Part shown: in pieces, positions 45,646-64,000 of the stretch
Layout: each line of letters opens with the position of its first letter
Numbering within the stretch: position 1 is the stretch's first letter
NCBI GenBank assembly: GCA_021296135.1
Contig: JAGWAZ010000018.1
Location: forward strand, 31,808-95,807
Reading direction: 5' to 3'
DNA from: Chlorobiota bacterium
GTDB taxonomy: Bacteria > Bacteroidota > Ignavibacteria > OLB7
DNA: 64,000 bases
Made by a program: the position numbers and the translations under genes
The notes under the pieces: model-generated
Databases searched by the model: none
What the model was told of the DNA's origin: nothing
The model's input: the letters and a program-made list of their open reading frames with translations, nothing else

Positions 45646-45649
45646 TCAG

Positions 45650-46100
45650 GGATGAGGGAAGTCAGAAGTAAGAAAGTCAGAAGCCCACATTCAAGTCTGA
45701 AGTGCAACAGGTGGAGGAGCTTTACCGCAATATACTTCCCAGGGTCTCTTCCACCCCAGACGAGCATTTCTATCTCCACATCGCTCACTCTGTTGAAGTC
45801 GGTCCCCTTTGGGAAGTACCGACGAATCAACCCGTTGCTCTGCTCGTTCGTTCCACGCTGTGAGGCACGATACGGGTCGGTGAAGTAGAACTCGATCCCC
45901 GGCTCTTCGGCTATCAGTTGATGCAAGGCAAACTCCTGTCGATAGGCCATAGTGCTTCGCTTTGATGGAGTTGTTATCACAAAGCTACGGCATCGGTTCG
46001 GCAAGAGGAAGCTTCCGGGCTTCCTCTTCAGCCTTCAGGCCGATTTTCCGTCGCCTTATGACTCCTCCGGCAACCGTTGCACTTCAGAGTTGAATTCGGG
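45650..46100 (-). mobile_element. IS30-family transposase C-terminal fragment (remnant; includes left direct repeat)
   Basis: EFYFTDPYRASQRGTNEQSNGLIRRYFPKGTDF matches the hallmark IS30 catalytic-domain C-terminus (F-DPY-W-RGTNEN-NGLLRQY-PKGTD); no intact N-terminal domain. Confidence 0.6.
45916..46100. repeat. Direct repeat copy 1 (185 bp) of IS30-derived sequence; near-identical copy at 57139-57324
   Basis: Base-by-base comparison: ~172/185 identical, same orientation. Confidence 0.8.
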
Positions 46101-46303
46101 GTTTATAAGTGATTGATTCGGTATATTAGCAGTGATATTAAACCCGATTATCTACCGGGTAGTAAGGTTAATGTTTAAAAATTAGCTTGAGATGATTGTC
46201 CGGGCGGCTGGGTTTTTTGCAAAATAGGGGGAATTTGGTAGGATTGGTAAGTAAATAAGTACTTCTATTAATAATAAAACAAATCGGCACTTAAATTATA
46301 TAT

Positions 46304-48532
46304 ATGCAGAAAATTAAACTTACGGAGAATGAGAAGAGGGATGTGCTTAAATATATTGAGGCTGATAAACCACTGCCGGAAAAATATCGTTGGCTTTTGT
46401 TTGCAGACAAAAAACAAGTAGAGTTGGTGTGGCATGGAAAGACATCGGAAGTGACAAAAACGGTTCTGCCGTTTCAGACGATTGAGGTAGTAGACGAACC
46501 ACGTGCCGAAACCACAAAAGAGACCAAAGAAAATCCACAACAAGCCCTGTTTGATTTCGACGAACGAGGGCGGCAGATTTCCGGTTGGACAAACAAGCTC
46601 ATCTGGGGAGATAATAAACTGATTCTGTCCAGTCTTAAAAGCGGACCGCTCCGCGAGGAGATAGAGAAAGCCGGCGGACTTAAACTTATCTACATTGACC
46701 CGCCCTTTGATGTCGGTGCTAATTTTTCAATGAAAGTTGAAATCGGTGATGACGAGCTAACCAAAAAGCCGAATGTTTTGGAAGAGTTGGTCTATCGTGA
46801 CACCTGGGGTAAAGGCGCGGATAGTTTTATTGCGATGATATATGAGAGATTAAGTTTAATGCGTGACCTATTAGCCGACGATGGCAGTATTTATGTGCAT
46901 TGTGATTGGCGAGTGAATAGCTATATGCGGTTGGTGTTGGATGAGGTGTTTGGAAAGGATGACTATAGAAACGAAATTATTTGGCAAAGAGATGCCGTTG
47001 GTAAGGGAGGAAAGAAAATTTCAAAACAATGGTCAAAAGAAATTGATCACTTGCTGTGGTATTCAAATAGCAATAACTATTATTTTGAACAACAATTTAA
47101 ACAATCTGATGAATTGACACATACTCAACTTAAGGAATTTAGATATAAGGAAGACAACGGGCGTCTATTTAAAATAGTTACACTTGGTAATTACTCGAAA
47201 GATTCAATTGAGAAGATGCGTAAAAAAAATCTTATACATACAACATCAACAGGCAAAGAATATAAAAAATATTATCTGGATGAGTTTCAGTTAGCCATTG
47301 GATCACTATGGCATGATATACCTAATATTTCTCATGGTAAGAATCCAGAAGCCCTAAATTACCCCACCCAAAAACCCGAAAAGCTCCTTGAACGCATAGT
47401 CAAAGCATCTTCCAACGAAGGCGACCTAGTAGCCGATTTTTTCTGTGGTTCGGGTACTACTCTGGCAGTAGCGGAAAAACTGGGTCGCAAATGGATTGGC
47501 TCCGACCTGGGCAAGTTTTCTATTCATACTACTCGCAAACGGATGATTAGTGTGCAGAGAGAAATAAAAGAATCGGGTAAAGGTTTTCGGGCCTTTGAGA
47601 TTTTAAACCTCGGCAAGTATGAACGCCAACACTACATCGGAGTCAATGACAATCTGCGTGAGGAACAAAAGCAAAAACAGATAGCTGAAAAAGAGAATGA
47701 TTTTATAAAGCTCATCATCAAAGCGTATAAAGCCGAGGCGGTAGAAAACTTTAAAACTTTTGTCGCCAAGAAAGCCGGGCGGTTGGTGGCGGTCGGACCG
47801 ATTAATTTACCGACCTCGCGCCTTCTCGTGGAAGCGGTAATAAAAGAATGTATTGAAAAAAAGATTACCAAAGTGGACATTTTATCCTTTGAGTTTGAGA
47901 TGGGCTTGTTTCCCAAGATTCAAGAGGAAGCCAAAGGTAAGGGGATTGATTTGGCACTGAAGTACATACCACGGGAAGTTTTCGACAAGCGAGCGATTGA
48001 AAAAAATCAAATAGAATTCCATGATGTGTCATACATTGAAATTAAGCCCCACATAAAGCCGGCCGGAAAACGCACCCCGGGTACTGTGGCTGTTGAGCTG
48101 AAAGATTTCTCTGTTTTCTATAATCAGGATATTGTAGATAATGTGATTGCGGGTCTTAAAAAAGGCGCTCATAAGGTATTGGTTGAGGCAGGTAATATCA
48201 TTAAGGTAACCAAAGACAAAGACGGGGTTGTGAATCGTGAAGTGCTGACCAAAAAATGGACGGATTGGATTGATTACTGGGCGGTGGACTTTGATTTTGA
48301 GAGCAAGGAAGAGATTGTCCGCATTAAAAATGATGAGGGTGAAATTGAAAAAGTGTGGACTGGCGATTATATTTTTGAGAATGAGTGGCAGAGTTTTCGG
48401 ACCAAAAAAGATCGCTCGATCGAGCTTAAGAGTGTGAGCCGTGAATGTGGTGCCGGACGGCGCAAGATAGCCGTTAAGGTGGTTGATATTTTCGGCAATG
48501 ATACTATGAAAGTAATTGAGGTTAAAATATAA
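46304..48532 (+). CDS. mod: Type III restriction-modification system methyltransferase (Mod; beta-class N6A/N4C MTase)
   Basis: Motif IV YIDPPFDVGANF precedes motif I FFCGSGTTLAVAEKLGRKWIGSD (beta order); 5-nt gap to res. Confidence 0.85.
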   Translation: MQKIKLTENEKRDVLKYIEADKPLPEKYRWLLFADKKQVELVWHGKTSEVTKTVLPFQTIEVVDEPRAETTKETKENPQQALFDFDERGRQISGWTNKLIWGDNKLILSSLKSGPLREEIEKAGGLKLIYIDPPFDVGANFSMKVEIGDDELTKKPNVLEELVYRDTWGKGADSFIAMIYERLSLMRDLLADDGSIYVHCDWRVNSYMRLVLDEVFGKDDYRNEIIWQRDAVGKGGKKISKQWSKEIDHLLWYSNSNNYYFEQQFKQSDELTHTQLKEFRYKEDNGRLFKIVTLGNYSKDSIEKMRKKNLIHTTSTGKEYKKYYLDEFQLAIGSLWHDIPNISHGKNPEALNYPTQKPEKLLERIVKASSNEGDLVADFFCGSGTTLAVAEKLGRKWIGSDLGKFSIHTTRKRMISVQREIKESGKGFRAFEILNLGKYERQHYIGVNDNLREEQKQKQIAEKENDFIKLIIKAYKAEAVENFKTFVAKKAGRLVAVGPINLPTSRLLVEAVIKECIEKKITKVDILSFEFEMGLFPKIQEEAKGKGIDLALKYIPREVFDKRAIEKNQIEFHDVSYIEIKPHIKPAGKRTPGTVAVELKDFSVFYNQDIVDNVIAGLKKGAHKVLVEAGNIIKVTKDKDGVVNREVLTKKWTDWIDYWAVDFDFESKEEIVRIKNDEGEIEKVWTGDYIFENEWQSFRTKKDRSIELKSVSRECGAGRRKIAVKVVDIFGNDTMKVIEVKI

Positions 48533-48537
48533 ATTTT

Positions 48538-51225
48538 ATGGCATTGCATAAAGACTTACCAAAATCACCGCACACTATACTTGACCCTAAGATCAGGTGG
48601 TTTCCGGCCGATGAGGTATTGCGTGATAAGGGTTATGAAAAATTATTGCCACCATTGGTTCATAAACTGCGACAGGAAGTGGCTGATTGGCGAGCCAAAA
48701 ATTATGCGGGAGTGAGTGACACTGGCCGAGCTCTTTTGGAGTGGTGGTTTAATACACCGCACCCGATAGAGACCGCCGACGGCATGGCGAATTTTCAATA
48801 CTACTTTGCTCAACGAGAGGCGGTGGAGACAATTATTTATTGTTATGAAGTAGCGGATGTTAAGGATAAATACGATTTGATTCGTTACGATAGCTCCGAG
48901 GCTGTCTCGGCCAGTATGTTCCCCGAGAATTGGCTTCGGTTGGTTATAAAAATGGCGACCGGCAGTGGAAAAACAAAAGTAATGAGTTTACTCATCGCCT
49001 GGAGCTATTTTCACAAACTGTATGAGGAGACATCGGGCTTGTCGCGCAATTTCTTGCTCATCACTCCCAACATTATCGTGCTCGATCGTATCAAAAGTGA
49101 TTTTGCCGGATTAAAAATATTCTGGGAAGACCCGATTTTGCCGGATAATGGTTTTGCCGGACAAAATTGGCAGGACGATTTTCAAATGACCATACATATG
49201 CAGGACAATGTCGGTACTGTCTCAAAAACCGGCAATATCTTTTTAACCAACATCCACCGCGTGTATAGCAGTAAAGATGTGGTGCCGAGTGCGGACGATG
49301 ATGACACTATGGATTACTTTCTCGGTGAGCGACCGGTTGCCAACACTAGTGATTCAAAAGTTAACCTCGGTGAGATTGTGCGGGATATTGACGAGCTAAT
49401 GGTACTAAATGACGAAGCCCACCATATCCATGACGAACGACTGGCTTGGTTTAAGTCCATTGAAGACATTAGCAATCGTATGAAAATGAAAGATGAATTT
49501 CTATCTTTGCAAATTGATGTTACCGCCACCCCCAAACATAACAACGGCTCAATCTTTGTCCAGACAGTTTCCGATTATCCATTGGTGGAAGCAATTTATC
49601 AGGATGTGGTAAAGCGCCCGGTGCTACCCGATGCTGCCAGTCGCGCCAAATTGCAAGAATACAAAAGTGCCAAATTCACCGAAAAATACAAAGATTATAT
49701 TCATCTTGGATATTTGGAGTGGCAGAAGGCCTATAAAGTACATGAGAAGATGGGCAAGAAAGCAATCTTCTTCATTATGACTGACGACACCAGGAATTGC
49801 GATGAAGTGGCGGAATACTTGATTAACAATCCGGCCTATCCGGAATTTCAATCAGAAAAAGATGTACTGGTTATTCACACAAAAAAGAATGGTGAAATAT
49901 CAGAGAGTGTGACCGGCAAAAAAGAAGAGGAGTTAAAAAAGTTACGCCAAGCCGCTAATGAGATTGATAACTGGGACAGTCCGCATAAAGCCATTATTTC
50001 CGTCTTAATGCTTAAAGAAGGGTGGGATACAAAGAATGTTACTACTATTGTCGGTCTGCGGGCTTATTCAGCCAAGAGTAATATTTTACCCGAGCAAACC
50101 CTCGGCCGGGGTTTGCGCCGAATGTACCGCGATAAAGATGTGACCGAGTATGTCAGTGTGGTCGGTACGGACGCTTTTATGGATTTTGTGGAATCGATCA
50201 GGAGCGAAGGGGTCGAACTCGAGACCACTAAAATGGGTACCGGGACGGAACCAAAAACACCGCTGGTAATTGAGGTAGATAAAGAAAACCCTAAAAAAGA
50301 TATTGAAAAACTGGATATTGAGATTCCTATTTTGTCACCGCGTATTTATAGAGAGTATAAAAATCTTTCTGATTTGGACATCAGCGATTTTACCCATAAC
50401 AAAATTGCTGTCAAAGAGTTTAGCGAAAAGGAGAAAAAGCAAATTGTTTTTCGTGATATAACTTCCGGCGATATTACACACACAACCGAATTCGACAATA
50501 ATTTTGTACCTAACTATCAAAGTGTGATCGGCTACTTCACGCAAATTATCAGAAAAGAGCTTAGACTGGTGGGCGGATACGATGTCTTGTATGAAAAAGT
50601 GAAATACTTTGTTATCGACCATCTTTTTGAGCAAGAAGTTGACTTAAACGATCTTAATATCCTGCGTAACTTGTCAGAAATGGAAGCGTCAAAGACCATT
50701 GTGGAAACTTTCAAGAAAGAGATTAATGAATTGACTGTCTTGGATAAAGGTGAAGCGGAAATCCGTAACTATATAAAAGTCAGCCAAGCAAGACCGTTTG
50801 TAATTAAGGACCAGGGATTTGTGGTGCCCCAAAAGAGCGTCTTCAATAAAATCGTCGGTGATAGTCATTTTGAGTTGCAATTCGCCGGCTTTTTAGAAGG
50901 TTGTGATGACATCATTTCGTATGCCAAAGACTATTTTGCGGTAAATTTCAAAATTGACTACAAAGACGCGGACGGAAATATTAGAGATTATTATCCGGAT
51001 TTCTTGGTTAAGGTATCAAATAAAGAGATGTACATCGTAGAGACCAAGGGGTTTGAAGATTTGGACGCTGTGGAAAAAAGAGAGCGATTGTATCAGTGGT
51101 GTGAGGATATCAATGCGGTGCAGAAAAAAGTGAAATTCACCGCCCTATATATCAAGCAAGAGGACTTTGAAAAATACACCCCCGAGAATTTTGGTGAGTT
51201 GGTGAGTAGTTTTGGTGATAAGTAA
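48538..51225 (+). CDS. res: Type III restriction endonuclease Res subunit (SF2 helicase + PD-(D/E)xK)
   Basis: Walker A MATGSGKT, DEAH VLNDEAHH, helicase motif VI QTLGRGLR, C-terminal nuclease YYPDF...VETKG. Confidence 0.85.
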   Translation: MALHKDLPKSPHTILDPKIRWFPADEVLRDKGYEKLLPPLVHKLRQEVADWRAKNYAGVSDTGRALLEWWFNTPHPIETADGMANFQYYFAQREAVETIIYCYEVADVKDKYDLIRYDSSEAVSASMFPENWLRLVIKMATGSGKTKVMSLLIAWSYFHKLYEETSGLSRNFLLITPNIIVLDRIKSDFAGLKIFWEDPILPDNGFAGQNWQDDFQMTIHMQDNVGTVSKTGNIFLTNIHRVYSSKDVVPSADDDDTMDYFLGERPVANTSDSKVNLGEIVRDIDELMVLNDEAHHIHDERLAWFKSIEDISNRMKMKDEFLSLQIDVTATPKHNNGSIFVQTVSDYPLVEAIYQDVVKRPVLPDAASRAKLQEYKSAKFTEKYKDYIHLGYLEWQKAYKVHEKMGKKAIFFIMTDDTRNCDEVAEYLINNPAYPEFQSEKDVLVIHTKKNGEISESVTGKKEEELKKLRQAANEIDNWDSPHKAIISVLMLKEGWDTKNVTTIVGLRAYSAKSNILPEQTLGRGLRRMYRDKDVTEYVSVVGTDAFMDFVESIRSEGVELETTKMGTGTEPKTPLVIEVDKENPKKDIEKLDIEIPILSPRIYREYKNLSDLDISDFTHNKIAVKEFSEKEKKQIVFRDITSGDITHTTEFDNNFVPNYQSVIGYFTQIIRKELRLVGGYDVLYEKVKYFVIDHLFEQEVDLNDLNILRNLSEMEASKTIVETFKKEINELTVLDKGEAEIRNYIKVSQARPFVIKDQGFVVPQKSVFNKIVGDSHFELQFAGFLEGCDDIISYAKDYFAVNFKIDYKDADGNIRDYYPDFLVKVSNKEMYIVETKGFEDLDAVEKRERLYQWCEDINAVQKKVKFTALYIKQEDFEKYTPENFGELVSSFGDK

Positions 51226-51360
51226 TTTTTTAATAAGACTATGCGTATTTATAATAATTTTTTGCGTGCGGATATATTTGAAATGATGCTATAATGAAAA
51301 ATATGAATATAATCCGAGTGATTTGAAAGGTTGGAGATTTGTTGGAATTAAAATAAAAAT

Positions 51361-52227
51361 ATGTTTATCAAAAAAATTACAATTCAAAATTTTCGTGGCA
51401 TTGATAATTTGACACCTCTGGAGATATCAAGAATAAATACCTTTGTTGGTAAAAATGATTCTGGTAAATCCGCAATCTTACAGGCAATAGGATGCTTTTT
51501 TGACGAGAAAAAGTTTAATAAGAAAGATATATTTAAAGCAAAACCAGATGATGAAAAAACTGTCATTGAAATTTCTTTTTTACCACCCACTGAAATAGAT
51601 AATTTGGCATTAGACAGCCAAGGACAAATTACAATTAAAAAGGAATTTGAGTTAATTGACGGAAAAATAAAGGTAAATTCGTTTTACAAATGTTTTGATT
51701 TCAGAGATGAAAGATATCAAGATTTATGGAACAAAAAAGAAGCCGATCTAAACCAAATTATTACTAACTTAGGAGAAGTGCCAGAGAGATCTGGCCGTGG
51801 AAAGAAAAATGTAATAAGAATTGAACAGATAAAAAATTCTGTTCCATCAGATGTTGTGCGGGAGAATAGATATAATCCTCTTGGCAATTATATAAAAAAT
51901 TTGGATAAAATATACGGAAGTGTGACATATCCTGAGTATTCTCTTTTTACTGCTGAACAAGATTTGAATATTGAAGCGACAAATTTTCAATCACAATTTA
52001 AGCCAATTATCTCTGCATACTTTTATAAAACCGAGACACAGACAGCAGAAATTGAGGCAGGCTTGAAAGAAGATTTAGCAATAGAGTTTGAAGAAATCAG
52101 AAAATTCATGAAGAAAAATGTCTCGGGTTTAAAAAAATTCAATCCCACAACTGAATTTGATTGGACGAAATCTCTTAAGAAGTTTGATTTAAATCTTGAA
52201 TTTGAGGGTCATGAATTTGATTACTAA
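51361..52227 (+). CDS. OLD-family nuclease, N-terminal ABC-ATPase half (Walker A)
   Basis: MFIKKITIQNFRGID...FVGKNDSGKSAILQAIG; stops at TAA overlapping next ATG (TAATG). Confidence 0.65.
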   Translation: MFIKKITIQNFRGIDNLTPLEISRINTFVGKNDSGKSAILQAIGCFFDEKKFNKKDIFKAKPDDEKTVIEISFLPPTEIDNLALDSQGQITIKKEFELIDGKIKVNSFYKCFDFRDERYQDLWNKKEADLNQIITNLGEVPERSGRGKKNVIRIEQIKNSVPSDVVRENRYNPLGNYIKNLDKIYGSVTYPEYSLFTAEQDLNIEATNFQSQFKPIISAYFYKTETQTAEIEAGLKEDLAIEFEEIRKFMKKNVSGLKKFNPTTEFDWTKSLKKFDLNLEFEGHEFDY

Positions 52228-53135
52228 TGGTTGCATATTTTGAACATCTTGCCAGTAAGCAAACTATGAGAGAGCATATTTTTGCAATTGAAGAACCAGA
52301 GACTTATTTACATCCTTCTGCTCAAGAAGACTTACTTAAATCTATTATAAAGATTTCCGAAAATTCTCAATTTTTTATAACCACACATTCTCCTATATTT
52401 GCTGGTGCAACTAATGGCGAAAATTCAATCTTGGTCTCAAAAAATGCAAGTGGGGTATCTCAATATAACAGAGGATCTGAGGATATAATACAGAAAATCA
52501 TTTCTGAACTTGGTATAAAACCAGATCATAATTTAATCAGAGAATGCAAGTTTTTGGTTTTTGCTGAGGGTGCAGACGATGTTAAATTTTTAAATATTGC
52601 AGCAAGAACTCTACTGGACAAAGATTTGAGCAAAGATGGTATAGTCTGTCTGATTGGTGGTGGGTCATCTCTATCAAATTATGCAGACTTGGATTTATTT
52701 AAGCAGATTCATGGAGAAAAATATGCGGTAATTGTAGATGGTGATAATGGCGACGAGAGAAAGCAGATAGAGAAAGTAAAAATTAAATCCAAGTGCGATT
52801 CAGATGGTGCTTTATTTAAACAATTGTCTAAACGAGAAATTGAAAATTTTTGTCCTCCGGAAAAGATAAAAGAGTGTTACATCTCAGAAATTAGAAGTAA
52901 AGAGGGGGCTGAGAGTATCAACCCTAGAATAACCAAAATAGACAAAACGACACTTACGATAGATGATGATACAGATGTCGAAAAATATTTAAAGGATCAA
53001 GGAATAAACGGTTTTAAAAATGGAATGAATATTAAAGTTTTTGAATCAATGGATATCTCTGACTGGGAATCTGTAGATGGTGACAACGAAATAAAAACAT
53101 TTCTTGAATCAGTGTACGAAAGAATTGAAAGGTAA
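52227..53135 (+). CDS. OLD-family nuclease, C-terminal half: ABC Walker B/H-loop + TOPRIM domain
   Basis: IFAIEEPETYLHP (Walker B/D-loop), ITTHSP (H-loop), TOPRIM FLVFAEGADDVKF ... AVIVDGDNGDE. Confidence 0.65.
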   Translation: MVAYFEHLASKQTMREHIFAIEEPETYLHPSAQEDLLKSIIKISENSQFFITTHSPIFAGATNGENSILVSKNASGVSQYNRGSEDIIQKIISELGIKPDHNLIRECKFLVFAEGADDVKFLNIAARTLLDKDLSKDGIVCLIGGGSSLSNYADLDLFKQIHGEKYAVIVDGDNGDERKQIEKVKIKSKCDSDGALFKQLSKREIENFCPPEKIKECYISEIRSKEGAESINPRITKIDKTTLTIDDDTDVEKYLKDQGINGFKNGMNIKVFESMDISDWESVDGDNEIKTFLESVYERIER

Positions 53136-53788
53136 TAAACATGTCCAATTAACGCTTGGAGAGTTATAACGAATATAATCAAAGTCGCCCAAGTGAACAC
53201 CAAGCAGGCACACGAACGAATGTGAGTGGCCCATGCGAGGTGCTTCTGCAGTGTGAGCGATTGATACATAACCATAGAGTATAAGGTACGGCACCAAGTG
53301 CTCGGGGCGTCCGTTTGATGTCAATCGTTAAGGCAAAGAGTACAGGCGAGGACGCCGCAAAAACACCGCCCGAGCGTTAGCGATGGCGGGGTCTCTGGCC
53401 GGATAAATTTCATACCTTATCGGGGTGGGTAGTATTGGTGGTGTTTTGGTGAGCGGTGAGGTGGGGCGGGAAATATGAATGAAATTTGTCTGGTCAGAGA
53501 GGTGGATTTAACGGTTGCTTTGCTTCAAGCTCTCACAAGTTGACAAGTGGACACAGAATAGCAGCGGAGATGATTCCGTGAGTAGCCCATCGGGCAAGAC
53601 GGCTAAGAACGAGAGAGACCGGTAAGAACGGCTGAGAAAAGGGAATACCCGTTGGGTACTGAAACCGCCATCCGGGAAGGACAGGTTCTAAACTGGCCCG
53701 CTGTTCAGCAGGCCGGTGCAAGTCGGGGAGAATTCGCCAAGGGACAAAGGTGAATGATGATCGCAAAGGTGAAGCGATGAGCAGCGAC

Positions 53789-54928
53789 ATGAAGATTCGA
53801 AAACTAGGCCTGAACAATTGGAAGAATTTCCCCAAGGTCGAGGTCGCCATAGAGGATCGCGTCTTTCTCGTAGGGCCTAACGCATCGGGGAAATCCAACT
53901 TCCTCGATGTTTTTCGGTTCTTGGGTGATCTCGCTGTTCCTGGCGGCGGTTTTCAGGAGGCGGTCCGTCGGCGCGGTGGGGTGAGCGCCATCCGGTGCTT
54001 GGCGGCGCGTAGCAGGCCGGATATCGAGGTCCATGTGGAATTGCAGAGTGAAAGAGGGGAGTCTCGATGGGAGTATGAGATCGCTTTCCATCAGGACAAG
54101 CAGCGTCGGCCACTTCTCCGCAAAGAACGTGTAATCCACGATCAGAGTCCGCTTGTTGATCGGCCCAACAAAGATGACAAGGACGATCCTGCGCGTTTGA
54201 CACAGACCCACCTCGAGCAAGTGAACGTCAACAAGCCCTTTCGCCCCCTGGTGGAGTTCTTTACATCTATCCGGTATCTGCACATCGTCCCGCAGCTCGT
54301 GCGCGAGCCCGATCGTTCGGTCGGGCGAACGAACGACCCTTATGGAGGCGATTTCCTGGAGCAGGTAACAAAGACCCAGGAACGAACGCGCAATGCGCGG
54401 CTAAAGCGCATACAGCAAGCCCTTCGGGTCGCTGTTCCCCGACTCGAAGAAATCGGTCTGTGGCGCGACGCCCGCGGCACGCCACACCTGCGGGGCAAGC
54501 ACCGACATTGGCGCCCGCAGGGGGCCTGGCAGACGGAAGAGCAATTCTCGGACGGAACCTTGCGGCTCATGGGGCTTCTCTGGGCGACCATGGAGAAGAA
54601 GGGGCCGTTGCTCCTCGAAGAGCCGGAGCTCTCGCTCCATCCGGAGATTGTGCGCGTCTTGCCCCAAATGCTTGCCCGGGTTCAGCGAAAAACTGGCCGG
54701 CAGATCTTCCTGAGCACCCACTCATCGGACCTGCTGCGAGACGAGGGAATTGGGCTCGACGAGACGCTGCTCATCATTCCCAAAAGAGAAGGTGTCGAGG
54801 TAAAGCCGGCTTCATCGTTCCAGGAATCCCGCGATCTGTTGGCGGGCGGTCTTTCGCTTGCGGATGTCGTAATCCCGAAAACCCGGCCTGAGCGAGCGGA
54901 ACAACTCTCCTTGTTCGGAGGTTCGTGA
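53789..54928 (+). CDS. ABC-type (AAA_15/AAA_21-like) ATPase of abortive-infection/OLD-like systems
   Basis: Walker A GPNASGKSN, signature-like FSDGTLRLMGLL, Walker B LLLEEPELSLHP, H-loop LSTHS; alternative starts at 53750/53777. Confidence 0.7.
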   Translation: MKIRKLGLNNWKNFPKVEVAIEDRVFLVGPNASGKSNFLDVFRFLGDLAVPGGGFQEAVRRRGGVSAIRCLAARSRPDIEVHVELQSERGESRWEYEIAFHQDKQRRPLLRKERVIHDQSPLVDRPNKDDKDDPARLTQTHLEQVNVNKPFRPLVEFFTSIRYLHIVPQLVREPDRSVGRTNDPYGGDFLEQVTKTQERTRNARLKRIQQALRVAVPRLEEIGLWRDARGTPHLRGKHRHWRPQGAWQTEEQFSDGTLRLMGLLWATMEKKGPLLLEEPELSLHPEIVRVLPQMLARVQRKTGRQIFLSTHSSDLLRDEGIGLDETLLIIPKREGVEVKPASSFQESRDLLAGGLSLADVVIPKTRPERAEQLSLFGGS

Positions 54929-55440
54929 ACGTGCCTATATCTACGATCATCTCCGCGGCGGTCGAAGGCGACGTCGACGAAGCGGTCGTCCGAAGGCTGG
55001 TCGCCCATGCGGGCGGACAAACCGGTGACGTATACGGAAAGAACGGCAAGCCTGCGTTGCGTCAGAGAATCGACGGCTATAACAACGCGGCTCGCTACGC
55101 ACCGTGGGTGGTGCTCGTCGATCTCGATAACGATGCCGATTGCGCCCCGTCGATACGCGAAGAGTGGGTACCGGCGCCCGCGCCTAATCTTTGCTTCCGA
55201 ATAGCTGTGCGCGAAGTCGAGGCTTGGCTGATGGCGGATGTTCAAACGCTCGCACGCTATCTGAGCGTAGGATTAAGCAGAATATCCGCGGACCCCGAGA
55301 CGCTGGAATGCCCGAAGGACGCGATGGTCGACTTGGCACGCCGCTCGCGACGCAACGATATCCGTAAGGACATGGTGCCGCGGCAGAAGAGCGGGCGTCG
55401 CGTCGGTCCGGCATACGCGTCGAGACTCAAGCCCTCATGA
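54925..55440 (+). CDS. small TOPRIM-like (E...DxD) protein, DUF4276-like; GTG start overlapping upstream stop (GTGA)
   Basis: SAAVEGDVDEAVV (acidic E) and WVVLVDLDNDADC (LVD/DxD) spaced as in TOPRIM folds; 171 aa. Confidence 0.45.
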   Translation: MNVPISTIISAAVEGDVDEAVVRRLVAHAGGQTGDVYGKNGKPALRQRIDGYNNAARYAPWVVLVDLDNDADCAPSIREEWVPAPAPNLCFRIAVREVEAWLMADVQTLARYLSVGLSRISADPETLECPKDAMVDLARRSRRNDIRKDMVPRQKSGRRVGPAYASRLKPS

Positions 55441-55796
55441 GAATATGGGATCTTCCACCGGCTCTGCTCTGCCGGCAACACCTTCTCGGTGAACACCGGG
55501 AGCTGCACGGGCTGTGGAACGTGTTGACTCAAGGAAAGACGGGATACCGGCGGCATCCAGAAACACAGAGGTGGGTCGGCCGCCTGGCGGCCTTGTACAG
55601 CCGGCACGAAGCCTTGGTCGGCGAAATGCTCGCCCGCGGCTATCGACACAAGTCACCGCTGGATGCATCGCTCGCCACCGGACTCGGGACTCAGAGCCAG
55701 CTAATCGATTCTTTGAGCGATCAGTACAAGATCCTGTGCAGCAAGCCGTGCCCATGTCCTCTGGCCCAGTGGACCGCCAACGACACGAGGGAGTAG
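55437..55796 (+). CDS. pyrimidine-dimer DNA glycosylase (T4 endonuclease V/DenV, Pyr_excise) family protein
   Basis: MRIWDLPPALLCRQHLLGEHRELHGLW aligns with T4 DenV [28 protein letters not shown] (catalytic N-terminus, E-x-REL). ATGA overlap with upstream gene. Confidence 0.6.
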   Translation: MRIWDLPPALLCRQHLLGEHRELHGLWNVLTQGKTGYRRHPETQRWVGRLAALYSRHEALVGEMLARGYRHKSPLDASLATGLGTQSQLIDSLSDQYKILCSKPCPCPLAQWTANDTRE

Positions 55797-55852
55797 ACCG
55801 CAGGTCGGATGAGACGAATCGATCTCCTGAGATGTGCATGGCCTCTAGTAAG

Positions 55853-55875
55853 GGCCGTCGCTTCGGCCGTTTTTT
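55853..55875 (+). terminator. Rho-independent terminator candidate (GGCCG-tcgctt-CGGCC + T6) after the ATPase/TOPRIM-like/DenV-like operon
   Basis: 5-bp GC stem, 6-nt loop, followed by GTTTTTT. Confidence 0.4.
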
Positions 55876-56157
55876 CGACCTGAAGAGAGGAAGTCATCTT
55901 GACACCGCTTTCGCTTTTGCCGAACGGCCAGAATTCTATAAGAACCCTTTGAATAAGATCTCATTATATCCACATTCTTCTTTATTTGAAGAATATTCCT
56001 TTTTCTGTTGAGTGTTTTATGATTTTCTGGACTCATTGTTCTCCTTTTCTGTGCTTCTTCGGTCTTTTTCGACCCAAAAGGACACACCTTTCCCCTTGGT
56101 TATACCTTTGACAGTATATACTCTGCCCTGAAAATATTCTACAACATACAATTGAAA

Positions 56158-56908
56158 TCAAATCGTAATTGATTCCGCTCCAAGGTCTTCGCTACTGCTT
56201 TGCTGTAATGCAATTTCTCTTTTAGCTAAGCAAAAGGATGTTCTACCTTGCAGCGTATTCGGGACCTCTTTTTGTTGCCTTTTTTTGGGTGTTGGACAGC
56301 TTCTTTCTCCTTGTCCCTTTCTCCAGTATACCATAGTATACTCCCTCCTTTCGAGCCTTTCGTTTATCACTCTTCTTCGAATAGGCGCTATCCCCGAATA
56401 CCGCCTTCTCATCTCCACTCAACAAAGCCTCTTTTACTTGTGAGTCATGAGGTCGGGCAGATGTAAAGGCGCGTTTGCGTATCAAAGTACTTCCTACATC
56501 GACACCTATATGCCCTTTGTATCGAAAATACTTCTTGCCTCCTTTGACTGTTGAATGTGCATCAGTATCTATTTGTGAGGAAGGATGCTCATCGAACGCT
56601 GCTCTTCGTTCTTTGCTCAATGCTCTTGTGGTCGATGGGATAATCGTGGCATCTACACAGGTACCCTTCTTCAACAGCAAACCCTTCGATTCTATAAAGG
56701 ATAAGATCAATGCAAATACCTTGTCATTGAGCTTCTCTTTTATCAACGACTCCTTAAAACGCCATATCGTGGTAAACTCTGGTACCGTTGTGGCATAATC
56801 GATCCCTGCAAAGCGCTGGAAACTCAAGCGATCATTCACCTGGTCTTCTAACTCAGGGTCGCTTAAATTATACAGGTGTTGTAAAAACAGCATTTTCACT
56901 TTGCTCAA
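56158..56908 (-). mobile_element. IS5/IS1182-like DDE transposase, probably degenerate (221-aa ORF + out-of-frame tail)
   Basis: MLFLQHLYNLSDPELEDQVNDRLSFQRFAGI (InsH-like N-terminus), CVDATII and GDSAY DDE signatures; C-terminal region absent/out of frame. Confidence 0.5.
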
Positions 56909-57138
56909 GAGGTCTCGATGGGGGCACTTCCGATGATAGGATTGGTCTTATCTACTACTTTGACCAGTTTCAACACCTCGTTCCAATCTACTATGGCGTT
57001 TATCTTGTCTAGTTTTACCGAAACTCTGCTGGGTTTTCTACTTTGACTTAGTTCTATGTCTGAAAAACTTAATTGGCTCATGATCGATTTTTTCTATAGA
57101 TTTACCAAAATGGATGCCCTTTTGCAAAGGGTTCTATT

Positions 57139-57324
57139 AGTTGATGCAAGGCAAACTCCTGTCGATAGGCCATAGTGCTTCGCTTTGATGGAGTTATTAT
57201 CAGAAAGCTACGGCATCGCTTCGGCAAGAGGAAGCTTCCGGGTTTCCTCATTCTGCCTTCAGGCCGATTTTCTGTCGCCTTATGACTCCTCCGGCAGCCG
57301 TTGCACTTCAGAGTTGAATTCGGG
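57139..57324. repeat. Direct repeat copy 2 (186 bp) of IS30-derived sequence (remnant only)
   Basis: Near-identical to 45916-46100; contains ...RSTMAYRQEFALHQLI coding remnant. Confidence 0.8.
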
Positions 57325-57497
57325 CAGTCTATCAGCCATTGCCTTTGCATCGAACACCGCCTGGATGGGATATAAGAATATAGCCATAAATAATATACTA
57401 TTTAGAACATAGCTATGAAAAATTAAAAACGAGGAATCAGGGATACCATACTGAATTGATTTTTTGAATTTTTTATTTTTACTTTTTAATTGCCTTC

Positions 57498-57884
57498 ATG
57501 AAGTTACGTATTCGATCAAATACATTGCGGTTCCGTCTTGGTCAGGTAGAAGTATCCTCACTGGCTAAGGAGGGTTTTGTTGAGGAGCAGACACAATTAG
57601 GTCCCAATGCAGAGGATGTTTTTATCTATCGCATTGAGTCTTCGTCAGATGTTGAACGTTTGGGACTGCGCTACCAACCTGGTAGGATAAGGATCCTTAT
57701 TGCCAAATCACTTGCTGGGGGCTGGAGTGACTCCGATGAGGTAGGTTTTGAAGGGAATGTCGAGGTTGGAGGGGGAGAATGTGTTTCGCTTCTTGTAGAA
57801 AAAGACTTTGCCTGTCTCAAGCCACGCGACCTGAAAGAGGACGAGGGGGCGTTCCCACATCCGGAAGCCGGGATACAATGTTAA
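57498..57884 (+). CDS. hypothetical protein (128 aa)
   Basis: ORF only. Confidence 0.3.
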   Translation: MKLRIRSNTLRFRLGQVEVSSLAKEGFVEEQTQLGPNAEDVFIYRIESSSDVERLGLRYQPGRIRILIAKSLAGGWSDSDEVGFEGNVEVGGGECVSLLVEKDFACLKPRDLKEDEGAFPHPEAGIQC

Positions 57885-58333
57885 TGTTTCAGGTTGTTTC
57901 GAAAGAAAAACCCGCCCTCGATATTATTGGCTCTGATTTATTGTTCGGGAAGCTTTGTCGTGCATCGATTGACTTTGAAAAGGTCTCAATGGTCGGGTAA
58001 CGATGTCCGATGCCGGCAAAGGCAAGGGCATAATCGTTCTTTGCAATCATCAGGTTGAACATTACTGCGAAGTTGCTGGCCTATTCGTTAAAAGCATTTG
58101 GATTGCTTTGGAGCATCCGTGTCTGTTGTGTAATTGAGGTTTCCCATTCATCAAGCCCGACAAGTTGCTTGTGGAGATGATTGAAGCTTGCCCTGGCCGG
58201 TTGCAACCAGTTGTGGAATATTGAAACGTAGCGAACATAGCGATTGTGGGAGATGTCCCGTCCATCGCCTCAATCGTGATTCGTGCGTAGTAGTAATGCT
58301 CCTCAGGAGTGAGAATACCGCCTTCACGACTTC

Positions 58334-59737
58334 CTACAGATTCAATCCTGCTTCCAACAATTGGTTTACTTTATTCTCGGAGTCAGCTTCAGCGTAATAA
58401 CGGAGGAGTGGTTCGGTTCCGGAGGCGCGAATCAAGAGCCACCCGTTATCTACGAAAAACTTGTAGCCGTCGAGGGTGCTTGCTTTCGTTACTGGATATT
58501 TGTCGAGCTTCGTTAGTCCGGCAGCCGCCCGTTTCAGGATTGCATCTTTTCGCTCTTGCGTCATCGGTTTGTCGATACGGCGGTAGCGATGTGGTCCGAA
58601 CTCATCATCAAGTTCACGTGATAGCTGACCGATCGACTTCCCTTTCTTTGCCATCAGCTCCAGAAGAAGCAGTCCGTTGAAAATGCCGTCTCGTTCCGGA
58701 ATATGCAGGATTGTGCCGAGTCCACCTGACTCCTCACCTCCGATGAGAATCCGCTCGTTGGCCATCAAGTCAGCAATATATTTGAAGCCGACCGGTGTCT
58801 CTATCAGTTTGATCTTGTTCCGCTCACAGTAATCGTTGACCATTGTTGTAAGGGAGATTGTCTTTGCCACAGTGCCACGTTTGTTACGGTCTTCATAGAG
58901 ATACTTCATCAGAAGAACAAAGACGCGATGTGAGTCGATGAAGCTCCCATCCTCAGCGATCACACCAAGCCGATCCGCATCGCCGTCAGAGGCGAGTCCG
59001 ATAGCATAACCTTCAGAACCGACGCGCTGGCTCAACTCGCCAAGGTACTCGCCGAGTGGTTCCGGGTGATCGATTCCGGTGAAGGCAGGATTGTGCTCGT
59101 TGTGAATATGATCGACATCCTTCAGAAGCAGATCCATCGTCTGAATGCCTGCGCCGAACATCGGATCATAAAGCACCTTGAACTTTGCTTTGCTGATCGC
59201 GTTCAGATCGATCTTCTTCTTCACATACTCCACGTACTCCTTTCGAGCATCGAAATAGCGAAGAGTTTTCTCCTTCAGATACTCATCCAGACTTGCAACC
59301 TTTGGAAGCCGCTTCGGAAGCTTCTTCTCAAAGGCCCTCACGGTCTTCTGAACTTTCGCGATGTCTGCAGGAGCCGAAGGGCCGCCATATCCTGCCTTCA
59401 GCTTGAAGCCGTTGTACTCGGCCGGATTGTGGCTTGCGGTAATCACTACACCTCCGGCCAGTCGTTTTCTTTTCGCCGCAAGCGATACCTGCGGAGTTGT
59501 CGAGATGCGATCCGTCAGCCAGACCTTCATGCCCTCTGAGGCAAAGAGACGCGCGGTTGTCTCAGCAAACTTATCCGAGAGAAATCGAGAGTCGTAGCCC
59601 ACAACGATCCCTCGGTCAGCATTCTTCTGTCGTTTGTAAAATCTGGCTGCAGCTCGAGCAACGAGTGCAACATTCTCGAACGTAAAGTCGTGGGCGATAA
59701 GACCTCGCCATCCGTCAGTTCCAAAAATGATAGGCAT
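58334..59737 (-). CDS. phosphoglucomutase/phosphomannomutase (alpha-D-phosphohexomutase) family protein
   Basis: Active-site TASHNPAEYNGFK, metal-binding DGDADR, sugar-binding GEESGG. Confidence 0.8.
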   Translation of the reverse strand: MPIIFGTDGWRGLIAHDFTFENVALVARAAARFYKRQKNADRGIVVGYDSRFLSDKFAETTARLFASEGMKVWLTDRISTTPQVSLAAKRKRLAGGVVITASHNPAEYNGFKLKAGYGGPSAPADIAKVQKTVRAFEKKLPKRLPKVASLDEYLKEKTLRYFDARKEYVEYVKKKIDLNAISKAKFKVLYDPMFGAGIQTMDLLLKDVDHIHNEHNPAFTGIDHPEPLGEYLGELSQRVGSEGYAIGLASDGDADRLGVIAEDGSFIDSHRVFVLLMKYLYEDRNKRGTVAKTISLTTMVNDYCERNKIKLIETPVGFKYIADLMANERILIGGEESGGLGTILHIPERDGIFNGLLLLELMAKKGKSIGQLSRELDDEFGPHRYRRIDKPMTQERKDAILKRAAAGLTKLDKYPVTKASTLDGYKFFVDNGWLLIRASGTEPLLRYYAEADSENKVNQLLEAGLNL

Positions 59738-59860
59738 GAGTAGAAGTTAGAAGTTCGATGTTAGAAGTGTGAAGTTTCATTTTTAGAAGGTAGGAGATAG
59801 AAGGTAGAATCTATGAAGTCTATGCCCCTCTATTCTCTCTACTACCTTTTCCATACTTCT

Positions 59861-61456
<1,596 letters not shown>

Positions 61457-62051
61457 CTACCATGTTTGCTGATTCTGCGTAACATCAGCTCGGATATTGA
61501 TTCCTTTCCCCAGATGCGCATATACTTGGCTAACGGCAGATATTCGGGCACGGGGCGATCAGTAAAACACCTCTTCTCCGGTTGAACCTCTTGAATGCAT
61601 CAATCTGAAACCGTATTTTTACTCCATGAATCATGCCTCACCGCATCATTCAGAAATCTTCTATTGGAGTGAGAAAAGAGGCCTAGTCCCGGTACCTTGT
61701 ATCCGAATCACATGATCAATGCGATCAAGTTCTACTGCGAGAAAGTACTTGGACCACCCCTCAGGTTTATCGCTTGCCACATCCAAAAAAGGACATAATA
61801 ACAGGGTAGAAGTGCAACTTGGGTTGACGAGCTTACCTCTTACTAATCCTCGTCTCCATACTGTTGATGGGCGGGAAGTCTATAGTACCGTATATGAAGA
61901 TAGTTTGTATGATGAGCAGAGGTTACAAATAGGTCTTCCCCGAGAACTCCCCTGATCTGTATATTCTGACTCTCACCTTTGAAAATGTGGTAAAGAGCCT
62001 GAAGGTGAGATAGAGCAATTTGAAAGAGGGTGTAGAGACCGAGAACTGCTG

Positions 62052-62600
62052 ATGACGAGCCACAAAACAACAACTCTTGGTGGAGGATGTTTCTGGTGTG
62101 TCGAAGCAATCATGCTACGATTGAACGGGGTGATCTCTGCTGTTTCAGGATATTCGGGAGGGAAGACTGATAATCCTTCCTATCAGGATGTCTGCTCTGG
62201 GACAACCGGCTATGCAGAGGTTGTGCAGGTGACATTTGATCCGGAAGTCATTTCCTTTGAGGATATTCTTAAAGTTTTCTTCCATACTCATGATCCAACA
62301 ACGCTCAACAGACAAGGGGCTGATGTTGGTACTCAATATCGTTCAGTGATCTTCTACCACAACGAAGGTCAGAAGCAGATTGCAGAGCTAAAGAAGGCTG
62401 AGGTAGATGCAAGTGATCTCTGGCCAAATCCGATTGTGACAGAGATTGCTCCGTTTGAGAAGTTTTATCCGGCCGAGAACTACCACCAGAACTACTTCGA
62501 CACCAATCCGGATCAACCATACTGCATGGCAGTGATTGATCCGAAGGTGCGGAAGTTCATGAAGAACTTTGCAGAGAAGGTGACTGGAGACGTCAGATAG
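62052..62600 (+). CDS. msrA: peptide-methionine (S)-S-oxide reductase
   Basis: GGGCFWCVEA active site, 182 aa. Confidence 0.9.
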   Translation: MTSHKTTTLGGGCFWCVEAIMLRLNGVISAVSGYSGGKTDNPSYQDVCSGTTGYAEVVQVTFDPEVISFEDILKVFFHTHDPTTLNRQGADVGTQYRSVIFYHNEGQKQIAELKKAEVDASDLWPNPIVTEIAPFEKFYPAENYHQNYFDTNPDQPYCMAVIDPKVRKFMKNFAEKVTGDVR

Positions 62601-62663
62601 CAGACCTCAAGACCTTAAGGCAAAGCAGTCCACTTCCTTTTCAGAGGTTTGAGAACTGATGAC

Positions 62664-63185
62664 TCAGTCGGCTGGCTCACCGAGTCGAAATGCCTTTGCA
62701 TACCAGGTAGCTCCCGCCCTCTGCTCAAAACTTCCGGCTCGCAGCTCGCCAACAGATGGAACTGTCAGATTGAATACCGTAGTCTCAGAATCGACCGCTC
62801 CTTTGTTTGCGAGCGAGCCGAATGTGATTCGATCCACACAGCGAATTGTCTCTCCATCTCTATAGCAGCAGTTCGGAGCGTCAAGGAAATCGACGTCGAT
62901 CTCTTTGCCAAGCTCGCGCAAAAAGCGCGTCATAGCGTCGATTGAGCAGCCGGATGGCCCTGTCTGGTCCTGATCGACACCAATCAAGAGAAAACGGTTG
63001 TGCAAGATCAAGGTTGAGGCGGTCAGCTCAGTGCCATGTGCAGCCCAACCACCAAGAAACTCCCGTACTCTATTCTCGACGAACTCTTTTTGCTCTTCAG
63101 ACAATGGATATCCCGATGTAAAGGCCCAGAGCTGAGCATGGTCGGGCAACGCATCAAATGGAGTCAATCCCATGGTTGTATACAA
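62664..63185 (-). CDS. conserved hypothetical protein (173 aa)
   Basis: ORF only. Confidence 0.35.
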   Translation of the reverse strand: MYTTMGLTPFDALPDHAQLWAFTSGYPLSEEQKEFVENRVREFLGGWAAHGTELTASTLILHNRFLLIGVDQDQTGPSGCSIDAMTRFLRELGKEIDVDFLDAPNCCYRDGETIRCVDRITFGSLANKGAVDSETTVFNLTVPSVGELRAGSFEQRAGATWYAKAFRLGEPAD

Positions 63186-63261
63186 TATATTAGTTGTCAG
63201 ACATTAGTGATCAGACCTCAGAAATGATCGGAGTATTTCTCTGATGTCTCATATCTGATGT

Positions 63262-63999
63262 CTACCCTACCATCTCCGATATTTCCAGGGCAGCATCAAC
63301 AGGCACATATTCAAGATCAAATGCCTCTGCGACTCCCTTGTGGGTTACAAGGCCGTTGATAATGTTGAGTCCATCACGAAGTCCTTCATCCTCTTCTAAT
63401 GCTTTTTCGTAGCCCTTGTTGGCCAGTTCGAGCATGTAGGGAAGTGTGGCATTCGTCAGACCGATCGTTGAAGTAAACGGAACTGCTCCCGGCATATTTG
63501 CGACGCCGTAATGAACGATGCCGTCAACCTCGTAGACCGGATCAGCATGTGTTGTCGGCTTCGAGGTCTCAACGCAGCCGCCCTGATCAACCGATACATC
63601 GACGATAACCGATCCAGGCTTCATCTCCGAGAGCATTGCGCGTGTGATGAGCCATGGAGCCTTTGCACCCGGAATAAGGACAGCGCCGATTACCAGATCA
63701 GCTTCGCGAATTGCTCCGAGGATACCGTGCGGTGTTGACATCATTGTGTCGGTGTTCTTCGGCATCACATCGTCGAGGTAGCGGAGACGATAGAGATTGT
63801 TGTCCATGATTGTCACGTTCGCCCCGAATCCTGCTGCTATCTTTGCAGCATGTGTTCCGACAACGCCGCCACCAAGTACAAGAACGTTGGCCGGCTTTGT
63901 GCCGGGAATACCACCAAGCAGCACACCACGTCCGCCCATCGGCTTCTCAAGGTACTTCGCCCCTTCCTGTGTTGCCATGCGTCCGGCAACTTCCGACAT
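63262..63999 (-). CDS. ald: alanine dehydrogenase (C-terminal NAD-binding part; 5' end beyond window)
   Basis: VLVLGGGVVGTHAAKIAAGFGANVTIMD Rossmann motif and AlaDH C-terminus. Confidence 0.8.
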   Translation of the reverse strand: MSEVAGRMATQEGAKYLEKPMGGRGVLLGGIPGTKPANVLVLGGGVVGTHAAKIAAGFGANVTIMDNNLYRLRYLDDVMPKNTDTMMSTPHGILGAIREADLVIGAVLIPGAKAPWLITRAMLSEMKPGSVIVDVSVDQGGCVETSKPTTHADPVYEVDGIVHYGVANMPGAVPFTSTIGLTNATLPYMLELANKGYEKALEEDEGLRDGLNIINGLVTHKGVAEAFDLEYVPVDAALEISEMVG

Positions 64000-64000
64000 T

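Follow-up and report, generated by a model that had tools for sequence, protein, structure and literature searches.

The run of three overlapping genes in the defense island of the window (the whole 64,000-nt stretch of DNA analyzed here) very probably represents a known HEC-01 pair that a deletion has joined to a separate Pyr_excise gene, with truncation of HEC-01B. The ORF list places three co-directional ORFs on the + strand, at 53750 to 54928, 54925 to 55440 (171 aa), and 55437 to 55796 (119 aa). Genes 1 and 2 overlap in GTGA (54925 to 54928) and genes 2 and 3 in ATGA (55437 to 55440), and a terminator-like hairpin on the same strand (GGCCGTCGCTTCGGCC, 55853 to 55868), followed by GTTTTTT, extends over 55853 to 55874. 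These features, presented in a preliminary description of the DNA as those of an undescribed three-gene defense operon, were all confirmed in the sequence. The GC contrast that it gave (about 60% for the segment versus about 40% for the adjacent R-M and OLD genes and about 50% for the host) also held, with values of 0.59, 0.61, and 0.61 for genes 1 to 3, 0.41 to 0.42 for the Type III R-M genes, 0.32 for the OLD-like gene, and 0.48 for the whole window.

Gene 1 (53789 to 54928, + strand, 379 aa) encodes an ABC ATPase, as had been proposed, with matches to Pfam AAA_21 (2.4e-35) and, almost end to end, to the PADLOC HEC-01A model (PDLC04180, E = 3.7e-158, model positions 1 to 380 of 382). It carries a Walker A motif (GPNASGKS), a Walker B-like motif (LLLEEPE), and an H-loop (STHS). 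The reading frame is open from both GTG 53750 and ATG 53789; the ATG is most likely the true start, since the match to the PADLOC model sets in at residue 14 counted from the GTG and gene 1 of the sibling contigs is called at 379 aa. Gene 2 (54925 to 55440, + strand) matches Pfam DUF4276 (4.4e-7, 30.8 bits versus a cutoff of 30.2) and the PADLOC HEC-01B model (PDLC04194, E = 1.7e-54). Its predicted fold is of the OLD-type TOPRIM class, with the acidic metal-binding residues (Glu, DxD) in place, in agreement with the earlier guess of a minimal TOPRIM/DUF4276 protein.

HEC-01 (Hma-embedded candidate 01) is a published two-gene candidate defense system composed of the ABC ATPase HEC-01A and the DUF4276/TOPRIM protein HEC-01B, the effector being of OLD-type TOPRIM fold (bioRxiv 10.1101/2024.01.29.577857; PMC12881386). 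The literature on the anti-phage activity of other HEC-01 representatives is mixed, and DUF4276 has been described as a Toprim/Mad4 homologue. Judged by these matches, genes 1 and 2 are the known and already catalogued HEC-01 pair, and the existence of PADLOC models for both of them removes the term “undescribed.” The two genes have the same order and 4-nt overlap as in the other loci examined, and the effector shares the predicted OLD-type TOPRIM fold. The copy in the window differs in lacking the last 41 residues of HEC-01B, and the module, instead of being embedded in an Hma system, follows a Type III R-M system and an OLD-like gene.

Other systems fit the pair less well. HEC-01 has its general logic, an ABC ATPase as presumed sensor or regulator combined with a TOPRIM nuclease as presumed effector, in common with OLD, Gabija, and PARIS; however, the nuclease is fused to the ATPase in OLD and GajA, whereas it is a separate gene in HEC-01. 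The effector of PARIS (AriA ABC ATPase plus AriB TOPRIM) is a DUF4435 protein of about 300 aa, in contrast to the DUF4276 proteins of about 200 aa in HEC-01; gene 2 belongs to DUF4276 and not to DUF4435, and gene 1 matches the HEC-01A models much better (E-158) than it does AriA (E-33). MADS likewise pairs an AAA_21-type ATPase with a DUF4276 Toprim protein (Mad3/Mad4), and gene 1 matches both NCBIfam MAD3 and PADLOC mad3, but its score of 66.7 bits against MAD3 (NF047739) is far under the 420-bit cutoff for the equivalog and no further MADS genes occur at the locus. Menshen and Mad3/Mad4 have DUF4276 effectors related to the HEC-01 pair; a literature search on MADS/Mad4 yielded only the paper on Menshen. 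None of the three proteins has an equivalog in NCBIfam, the matches to MAD3 and TIGR02328 being far under their cutoffs.

The small size of gene 2, taken in the preliminary description as a trait of the protein, results from a 1,218-bp deletion. Members of the HEC-01B family are 200 to 209 aa long and end in a conserved C-terminal helical segment (about residues 169 to 209), which gene 2 lacks; the match to the PADLOC model covers only positions 5 to 168 of 204, and the match to the family HMM spans 1 to 166, compared with about 1 to 200 in all other loci. Residues 1 to 168 are authentic and are followed by three junction-encoded residues (KPS) and a stop. In an alignment of 16 sequences, three copies, those of the window and of two siblings, stop at ASRL plus KPS, whereas the remainder carry about 40 further, conserved residues. 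Across 51 sequences, 2 columns of the lost part are invariant and 11 nearly so, and an AF2 model shows this part as helices (pLDDT 92 to 98). The TOPRIM core residues (E14, D66/D68/D70, E99) are kept and the frame is open in all three deleted genomes; the copy in sibling assembly L006 has changes at two near-invariant columns (W101R, L102P). Synonymous and nonsynonymous counts across the sibling alleles are too few to show relaxed selection. The loss of this segment suggests that the truncated nuclease is impaired and that the HEC-01 module is probably inactive here.

The origin of the truncation is seen in the sibling contig L114, whose synteny with the window extends from the RNR gene through enolase. 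L114 has a 209-aa gene 2, then a spacer of 1.1 kb, and then an identical Pyr_excise gene. BLAST aligns it with the window in two collinear blocks, L114 8272 to 10505 with window 53196 to 55429 and L114 11724 to 20298 with window 55430 to 64000, so that the junction of the 1,218-bp deletion lies at 55429/55430, 7 nt upstream of the Pyr_excise ATG, with both reading frames left open. The overlap of genes 2 and 3, previously read as translational coupling, is therefore a deletion scar and not an ancestral or designed feature. The junction is common to three independent assemblies (the window, L005, and L006), and because these are about 99% identical, their shared arrangement is one event inherited by descent. 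The reverse polarity, with the L114-type allele derived by a 1.2-kb insertion that restored a family-conserved C terminus, is implausible. In another carrier of the module, L003/L113, the R-M and HEC-01 module occupies another chromosomal site, near yidC/rnpA/dnaA; homology with L003 also stops at window 55429, and at this other site homology ends 80 nt past the HEC-01B stop, with Pyr_excise absent. Since L114, collinear from window 55430 onward, has the hairpin after Pyr_excise, the hairpin is the glycosylase gene's own terminator.

Gene 3 (55437 to 55796, + strand, 119 aa) is a stand-alone Pyr_excise gene of the T4 endonuclease V-like DNA glycosylase family. The DenV-like assignment made from the sequence was borne out by a strong match to Pfam PF03013 (1.9e-27, 95.8 bits versus a cutoff of 23, profile positions 1 to 79 of 81) and by the predicted fold. 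A PDB sequence-profile search with the Pyr_excise subfamily gave only chance matches (E > 0.1) and did not reach T4 endonuclease V, and a fold comparison was therefore used instead. The AF2 model (pLDDT 86.7) adopts the all-alpha fold of endonuclease V, and its best four Foldseek matches in the PDB are T4 endonuclease V structures (2end, 1enj, 1eni, and 1enk), with probabilities of 0.90 to 1.00 and TM scores of 0.60 to 0.62 but an E value of only 0.09; the next matches have TM scores below 0.4. The N termini appear to be in register: in a BLASTP comparison with a T4 sequence, Met1, whose amine would have to serve as the nucleophile, aligns with Thr2, and Glu22, in a QHLxxExREL motif, aligns with the catalytic T4 Glu23. 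Glu22 is nearly invariant in the gene 3 subfamily. The two proteins share just about 21 to 26% identity, and gene 3 differs from the 138-aa T4 enzyme in its length, in a conserved C-terminal KPCxC motif, and in its N-terminal residues, Met-Arg instead of Thr. Its putative activity is that of a cyclobutane-dimer glycosylase/AP lyase. More than 3,000 Pyr_excise homologues are found in varied contexts, and a literature search on a defense role of Pyr_excise or pyrimidine dimer glycosylases returned nothing relevant. Gene 3 appears to be an ordinary base-excision repair glycosylase of the UV-photoproduct type, which would have no role in HEC-01.

The preliminary description had asked whether homologues of the trio co-occur in this order across genomes, and they do not. 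Pyr_excise is absent within ±6 kb of all 28 other ATPase plus DUF4276 loci (26 genome loci from at least 10 phyla, together with L003/L113 and L004), each of which has a full-length DUF4276 gene, and neither a DUF4276 gene nor a gene 1-like ATPase was found near Pyr_excise in 80 loci. A DUF4276 gene, on the other hand, adjoins the gene 1 homologue in every independent locus with its upstream flank present. The trio itself occurs only among the siblings of about 99% identity, that is, in one species-level lineage. Among 146 neighbor ORFs from 18 Pyr_excise loci, most are housekeeping genes and none is recurrent, the commonest families being NUDIX, TspO, transketolase, Ddl, ATP synthase, PolA, and MreB. 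Two neighbor ORFs matched the PADLOC mad3 model; they are probably the two ABC_tran proteins among these neighbors and were rejected as relatives of gene 1 (phmmer E > 0.4, with no DUF4276 gene in those loci).

The surroundings of the trio are modular. A GC-richer leader without a called gene (53196 to 53788, + strand) lies upstream of gene 1 and forms the left part of the HEC-01 module; homology to other module carriers begins at 53196 (L114), 53344 (L005), or 53510 (L003/L113). A different cassette lies upstream of the module in L005. An Rfam scan of 45600 to 57600, which includes the leader, gave no match. The defense island of about 11 kb is bracketed by direct repeats of about 193 bp, at 45911 to 46103 and 57134 to 57327 (both + strand), which are about 95% identical and the only two copies in the window. 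Downstream of the trio lies an IS5-family insertion sequence (55940 to 57133, − strand; inverted repeats at 55936 to 55957 and 57119 to 57140) with a flanking CTAT duplication. Its transposase (DUF772, DDE_Tnp_1) is frameshifted by a 1-nt gap at 56925 relative to the siblings, whose transposases are 244 to 279 aa long. Deletion of adjacent DNA by this element and carriage of Pyr_excise as its passenger were both rejected, as the element has its own CTAT duplication and is also present in undeleted L114; it therefore had no part in joining gene 2 to gene 3. The island also has a split OLD-like gene. Taken together, the locus most likely consists of a crippled HEC-01 module and, next to it, an independent glycosylase gene of repair type, within a modular island that is decaying.

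The course of events was very probably as follows. In the HEC-01 family, the presumed sensor or regulator is the ABC ATPase, and the presumed effector is the small DUF4276 OLD-type TOPRIM nuclease. The ancestor of the strain cluster carried an island with full-length HEC-01A and HEC-01B, followed by a GC-rich spacer of about 1.1 kb (noncoding or pseudogene-like) and a separate Pyr_excise gene that had a terminator of its own. The last 41 HEC-01B codons and the spacer were then lost in an illegitimate deletion of 1,218 bp, so that codon 168 came to lie next to a position 7 nt ahead of the Pyr_excise ATG; the 171-aa length and the ATGA overlap are both by-products, and Pyr_excise would now presumably be transcribed by read-through from the HEC-01 promoter. 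One observation points elsewhere: the GC content of gene 3 (0.61) equals that of genes 1 and 2 (0.59 and 0.61), and the undeleted allele, too, has all three genes in one GC-rich block, with only 1.1 kb ahead of gene 3. For this reason, a looser association of gene 3 with HEC-01, or co-transfer of both from one donor, is still conceivable.

The same deletion may have been adaptive, selected for silencing a costly or toxic TOPRIM effector or for driving the glycosylase from the HEC-01 promoter and so increasing repair, which we regard as unlikely. A junction just 7 nt before the Pyr_excise ATG with both frames open would suit such an origin, as would the presence of the deleted allele in three assemblies that stem from two or more studies (undeleted L114 and L005 belong to one study) and the visible decay of the island's genes, namely, the split OLD-like gene and the frameshifted IS transposase. 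The sparse sibling substitution counts, however, give no sign of selection, and a neutral deletion in a decaying island accounts for the same facts. It is quite improbable that Pyr_excise is an independent single-gene anti-phage factor against modified phage bases, next to HEC-01 by chance: although it sits in a horizontally acquired island and a few homologues are near toxin-antitoxin, R-M, SoFic, or PDC genes, no PADLOC model matches gene 3, the neighbors are housekeeping or miscellaneous genes, and both the catalytic Glu and the fold, that of T4 endonuclease V, suggest known repair chemistry.

A genuine undescribed three-gene system, with the DenV-like glycosylase recognizing or processing modified phage DNA and so licensing the ATPase/TOPRIM pair, is highly improbable. 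The co-directional overlapping genes with a single downstream terminator, the setting beside the Type III R-M and OLD-like genes, and the retention of the arrangement in three sibling assemblies with 100% identical Pyr_excise genes all speak for such a system; however, the pair alone is catalogued as HEC-01, the trio is missing from the 28 HEC-01 and 80 Pyr_excise loci, the overlap was made by a deletion that truncated the nuclease, and the siblings count as one event. By its own standards the proposal thus fails twice: the ATPase/TOPRIM pair is catalogued, and the trio stays within one species-level lineage. Hardly better is the prospect that the shortened DUF4276 nuclease still partners the ATPase and that the co-translated glycosylase contributes, for instance, by nicks in damaged or modified invading DNA that serve as TOPRIM entry points; if so, HEC-01 would have gained a third component here, very recently and in this lineage alone. 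That the junction of genes 2 and 3 results from faulty assembly or binning (a chimeric contig) can practically be dismissed: the source is a MAG and homology changes abruptly at 55429/55430, but three independent assemblies have the identical junction, and collinearity with L114 extends for 2.2 kb on one side of it and 8.6 kb on the other.

The locus offers little new biology, and its value lies in the correction: a tidy overlapping “operon” in a defense island can be a deletion scar, which comparison with sibling genomes reveals at once. It is a small documented case of the decay and reshuffling of a defense island: the effector is truncated, the OLD-like gene is split, an IS has inserted, and close relatives have swapped cassettes. 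For any test of HEC-01, the natural allele pair, full-length in L114 and truncated in the window, already provides the comparison that would show whether the effector needs its C-terminal helices.

Three ORFs were called on the forward strand, namely, gene 1 (53750-54928 as a GTG-started ORF), gene 2 (54925-55440), and gene 3 (55437-55796). The layout given in the preliminary description holds: the ORFs overlap at GTGA (54925-28) and ATGA (55437-40), as read off the sequence, and a G+C-rich hairpin (55853-55868) followed by GTTTTTT forms the claimed terminator 3' of gene 3. The three genes are also GC rich as described (0.59, 0.61, and 0.61), compared with 0.41 to 0.42 for the adjoining Type III R-M genes, 0.32 for the OLD-like gene, and 0.48 for the entire window. 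Sibling contigs have gene 1 called as 379 aa, and its PADLOC match begins at residue 14 of the GTG-started ORF; the true start is therefore probably the ATG at 53789, which yields a product of 379 aa.

Gene 1 is an AAA_21/AAA_15 ABC-type ATPase (Pfam, 2.4e-35), gene 2 lies marginally above the DUF4276 threshold (30.8 bits versus 30.2; Pfam), and gene 3 clearly belongs to Pyr_excise (95.8 bits; Pfam). On the Pfam, PADLOC, and fold results, all three proposed families (ABC/AAA-type ATPase, DUF4276-like, and DenV-like) were correct. The proposal of an undescribed system was not, as gene 1 matches HEC-01A over its full length (PDLC04180, E=3.7e-158) and gene 2 matches HEC-01B (PDLC04194, E=1.7e-54), both catalogued in PADLOC; genes 1 and 2 belong to HEC-01. 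HEC-01 is counted among the "Hma-embedded candidate" systems, is described as pairing an ABC ATPase with a TOPRIM-like protein that carries the OLD metal-binding site, and was not protective in the original E. coli screen (bioRxiv 10.1101/2024.01.29.577857). A different representative gave protection from one or more of T4, T5, and T7 (PMC12881386), and DUF4276 has been placed in the Toprim superfamily as a homologue of Mad4 of MADS (PMC12065111). The ~650 bp 5' of gene 1 (53136-53788) lack a convincing ORF and had no match in an Rfam scan; they are kept in other carriers of the module, with different left end-points (53196, 53344, and 53510), and may hold the HEC-01 promoter or regulatory region.

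A C-terminal segment conserved among homologues is missing from gene 2. Its homologues (n=1,834) are nearly all 198 to 209 aa among the matches listed, and their alignment shares a C-terminal stretch, ASRL-IEYVRDHWQP and, farther on, LQWLVE; gene 2 of the window and two siblings (96 to 98% identity) end in ASRL-KPS-stop. The 41 absent residues include 2 invariant and 11 near-invariant columns (51 sequences) and are modeled as helices with pLDDT values of 92 to 98, and gene 2 covers only positions 5 to 168 of 204 in the PADLOC HEC-01B model. Among sibling genomes, gene 2 (54925-55428) is the most divergent 500-bp stretch, with 12 to 16 differences versus contigs L005 and L006 against a regional average of ~0.5% and no difference in the adjacent Pyr_excise gene; in L006, it carries W101R and L102P, both in near-invariant columns. 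Relaxed constraint or recombination between alleles could account for this divergence.

The undeleted allele is found in the syntenic contig L114 (ENA ERZ23495265, 68.9 kb), in the order class II RNR, Type III mod, res, OLD-like gene, HEC-01A, HEC-01B, IS5 transposase, DUF7009, phosphoglucomutase, and enolase. There, HEC-01B has its full 209 aa, and 1.1 kb farther 3' comes an identical Pyr_excise gene. Two collinear BLASTN blocks (L114 8272-10505 to window 53196-55429, 98.5% identity; L114 11724-20298 to window 55430-64000, 99.6% identity) abut in the window, which therefore lacks L114 10506-11723, that is, 1,218 bp comprising the final 125 nt of HEC-01B and a spacer. The junction, GAGACTCA/AGCCCTCATG, has essentially no microhomology and lies 7 nt 5' of the Pyr_excise ATG, where the TGA within "ATGA," in frame by chance, stops the truncated gene 2. 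The overlap of genes 2 and 3 is thus a deletion scar, with gene 3 a stand-alone Pyr_excise-family gene placed beside gene 2 by the deletion. An adaptive neo-operon, in which the deletion silences the effector or boosts repair, is unlikely, and no observation supports it. The deleted spacer (L114 10631-11723, 1.1 kb) is GC rich; it contains nothing but an ORF with a sub-threshold match to an Acyl-CoA_dh_N fragment (E=0.0025), which may be left over from donor-genome DNA transferred along with the Pyr_excise gene.

Gene 3 matched no PADLOC model. In its AF2 model (pLDDT 86.7), the best four PDB matches are all T4 endonuclease V (probability 0.9 to 1.0, TM about 0.62, E-value only 0.09), and pairwise BLASTP against a T4 sequence tentatively aligned Glu22 with T4 Glu23 and Met1 with Thr2. 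Homologue alignment places gene 3 in a subfamily of short bacterial Pyr_excise proteins (about 110 to 125 aa) with an MRIWD N terminus and an invariant C-terminal K-x-C-x-C motif, both absent from T4 endonuclease V; one close homologue (P0004) has Val in place of the catalytic Glu. Genomic contexts make it very improbable that Pyr_excise is an independent defence gene: its neighbours (146 ORFs, 18 loci) are mostly of housekeeping or miscellaneous families with only scattered defence matches, and no neighbour of the subfamily recurs, the top cluster occurring in 6 of 82 loci.

A true three-gene defence system of ATPase, TOPRIM, and Pyr_excise, the central claim of the preliminary description, is rejected, as its second overlap was made by deletion and the trio does not co-occur in the other loci examined. 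When relatives of gene 2 were scanned with one genome per species, the 26 loci came from Latescibacterota, Rhodothermales, Entotheonella/Tectimicrobiota, Gammaproteobacteria, Acidobacteriota, Nitrospirales, Myxococcota, Acidimicrobiia, and other groups; the ATPase gene lay immediately 5' wherever upstream flank was present, the DUF4276 profile was matched to about position 200 in all, and none had a Pyr_excise ORF within ±6 kb. Conversely, neither a DUF4276 ORF nor a gene-1-like ATPase was found near Pyr_excise in 80 metagenomic loci (upstream sequence of 1.7 kb or more was available in 39). The pair is also absent around the two nearest Pyr_excise homologues on long contigs, one located after a PIN toxin gene and the other among glyoxalase and DNA_alkylation genes. 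In the related contigs L003 and L113, the R-M and HEC-01 module occupies another chromosomal site, near yidC, rnpA, and dnaA, where homology to the L114 module runs out 80 nt past the HEC-01B stop, with no Pyr_excise gene. With the pair catalogued and no co-occurrence found, both of them outcomes that the preliminary description had itself named as refuting its claim, the components are not new and the three genes do not make up a system. L005 and L006, two more independent assemblies, have the identical junction, which rules out an assembly artefact; the junction is real and reflects a single event inherited in a ~99% identical cluster.

The island as a whole looks to be decaying and being reshuffled. 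A ~193-bp direct repeat (45911-46103 and 57134-57327, about 95% identical, two copies only in the window) brackets the entire ~11-kb island, from the Type III R-M genes through the OLD-like gene, HEC-01, and Pyr_excise to the IS, with no integrase; a 37- to 39-nt piece of the repeat is inverted at 45681-45719, and the repeat may define the island as an att-like sequence or a recombination hotspot. The OLD/GajA-like ABC ATPase-TOPRIM gene (GC 0.32) is broken up into the ORFs 51361-52227 and 52227-53135 and is probably a pseudogene in the window genome; it is a single intact 603-aa gene in L006, with about 37 extra nt at window ~52220, and a 521-aa version in L114. An IS5-family element on the reverse strand (55940-57133; DUF772 and DDE_Tnp_1), with ~22-nt imperfect inverted repeats and a CTAT duplication, is inserted at the exact left edge of the right-hand repeat, and its transposase is frameshifted (221 aa versus 244 to 279 aa in siblings), with a 1-nt indel at 56925. 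In L005 (1-6456), another upstream cassette with an SNF2 helicase, an Eco57I-like N6-methyltransferase, and two small ORFs (Hma/BREX-like) replaces the Type III R-M and OLD-like genes of the same island; in L003 (1708-4440) and L113, a 910-aa SMC_N-like protein replaces the OLD-like gene, and the R-M and HEC-01 block is not between the RNR and PGM genes.

From family knowledge, gene 3 would most likely process UV photoproducts as a base-excision glycosylase/AP lyase, presumably expressed by read-through from the HEC-01 promoter, with the transcript ending at its own terminator. By analogy with OLD, Gabija, and PARIS, the ABC ATPase of an intact HEC-01 is probably the infection sensor that controls the TOPRIM nuclease. 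The truncated gene 2 effector is probably impaired, and the HEC-01 module of the window is therefore likely inactive.
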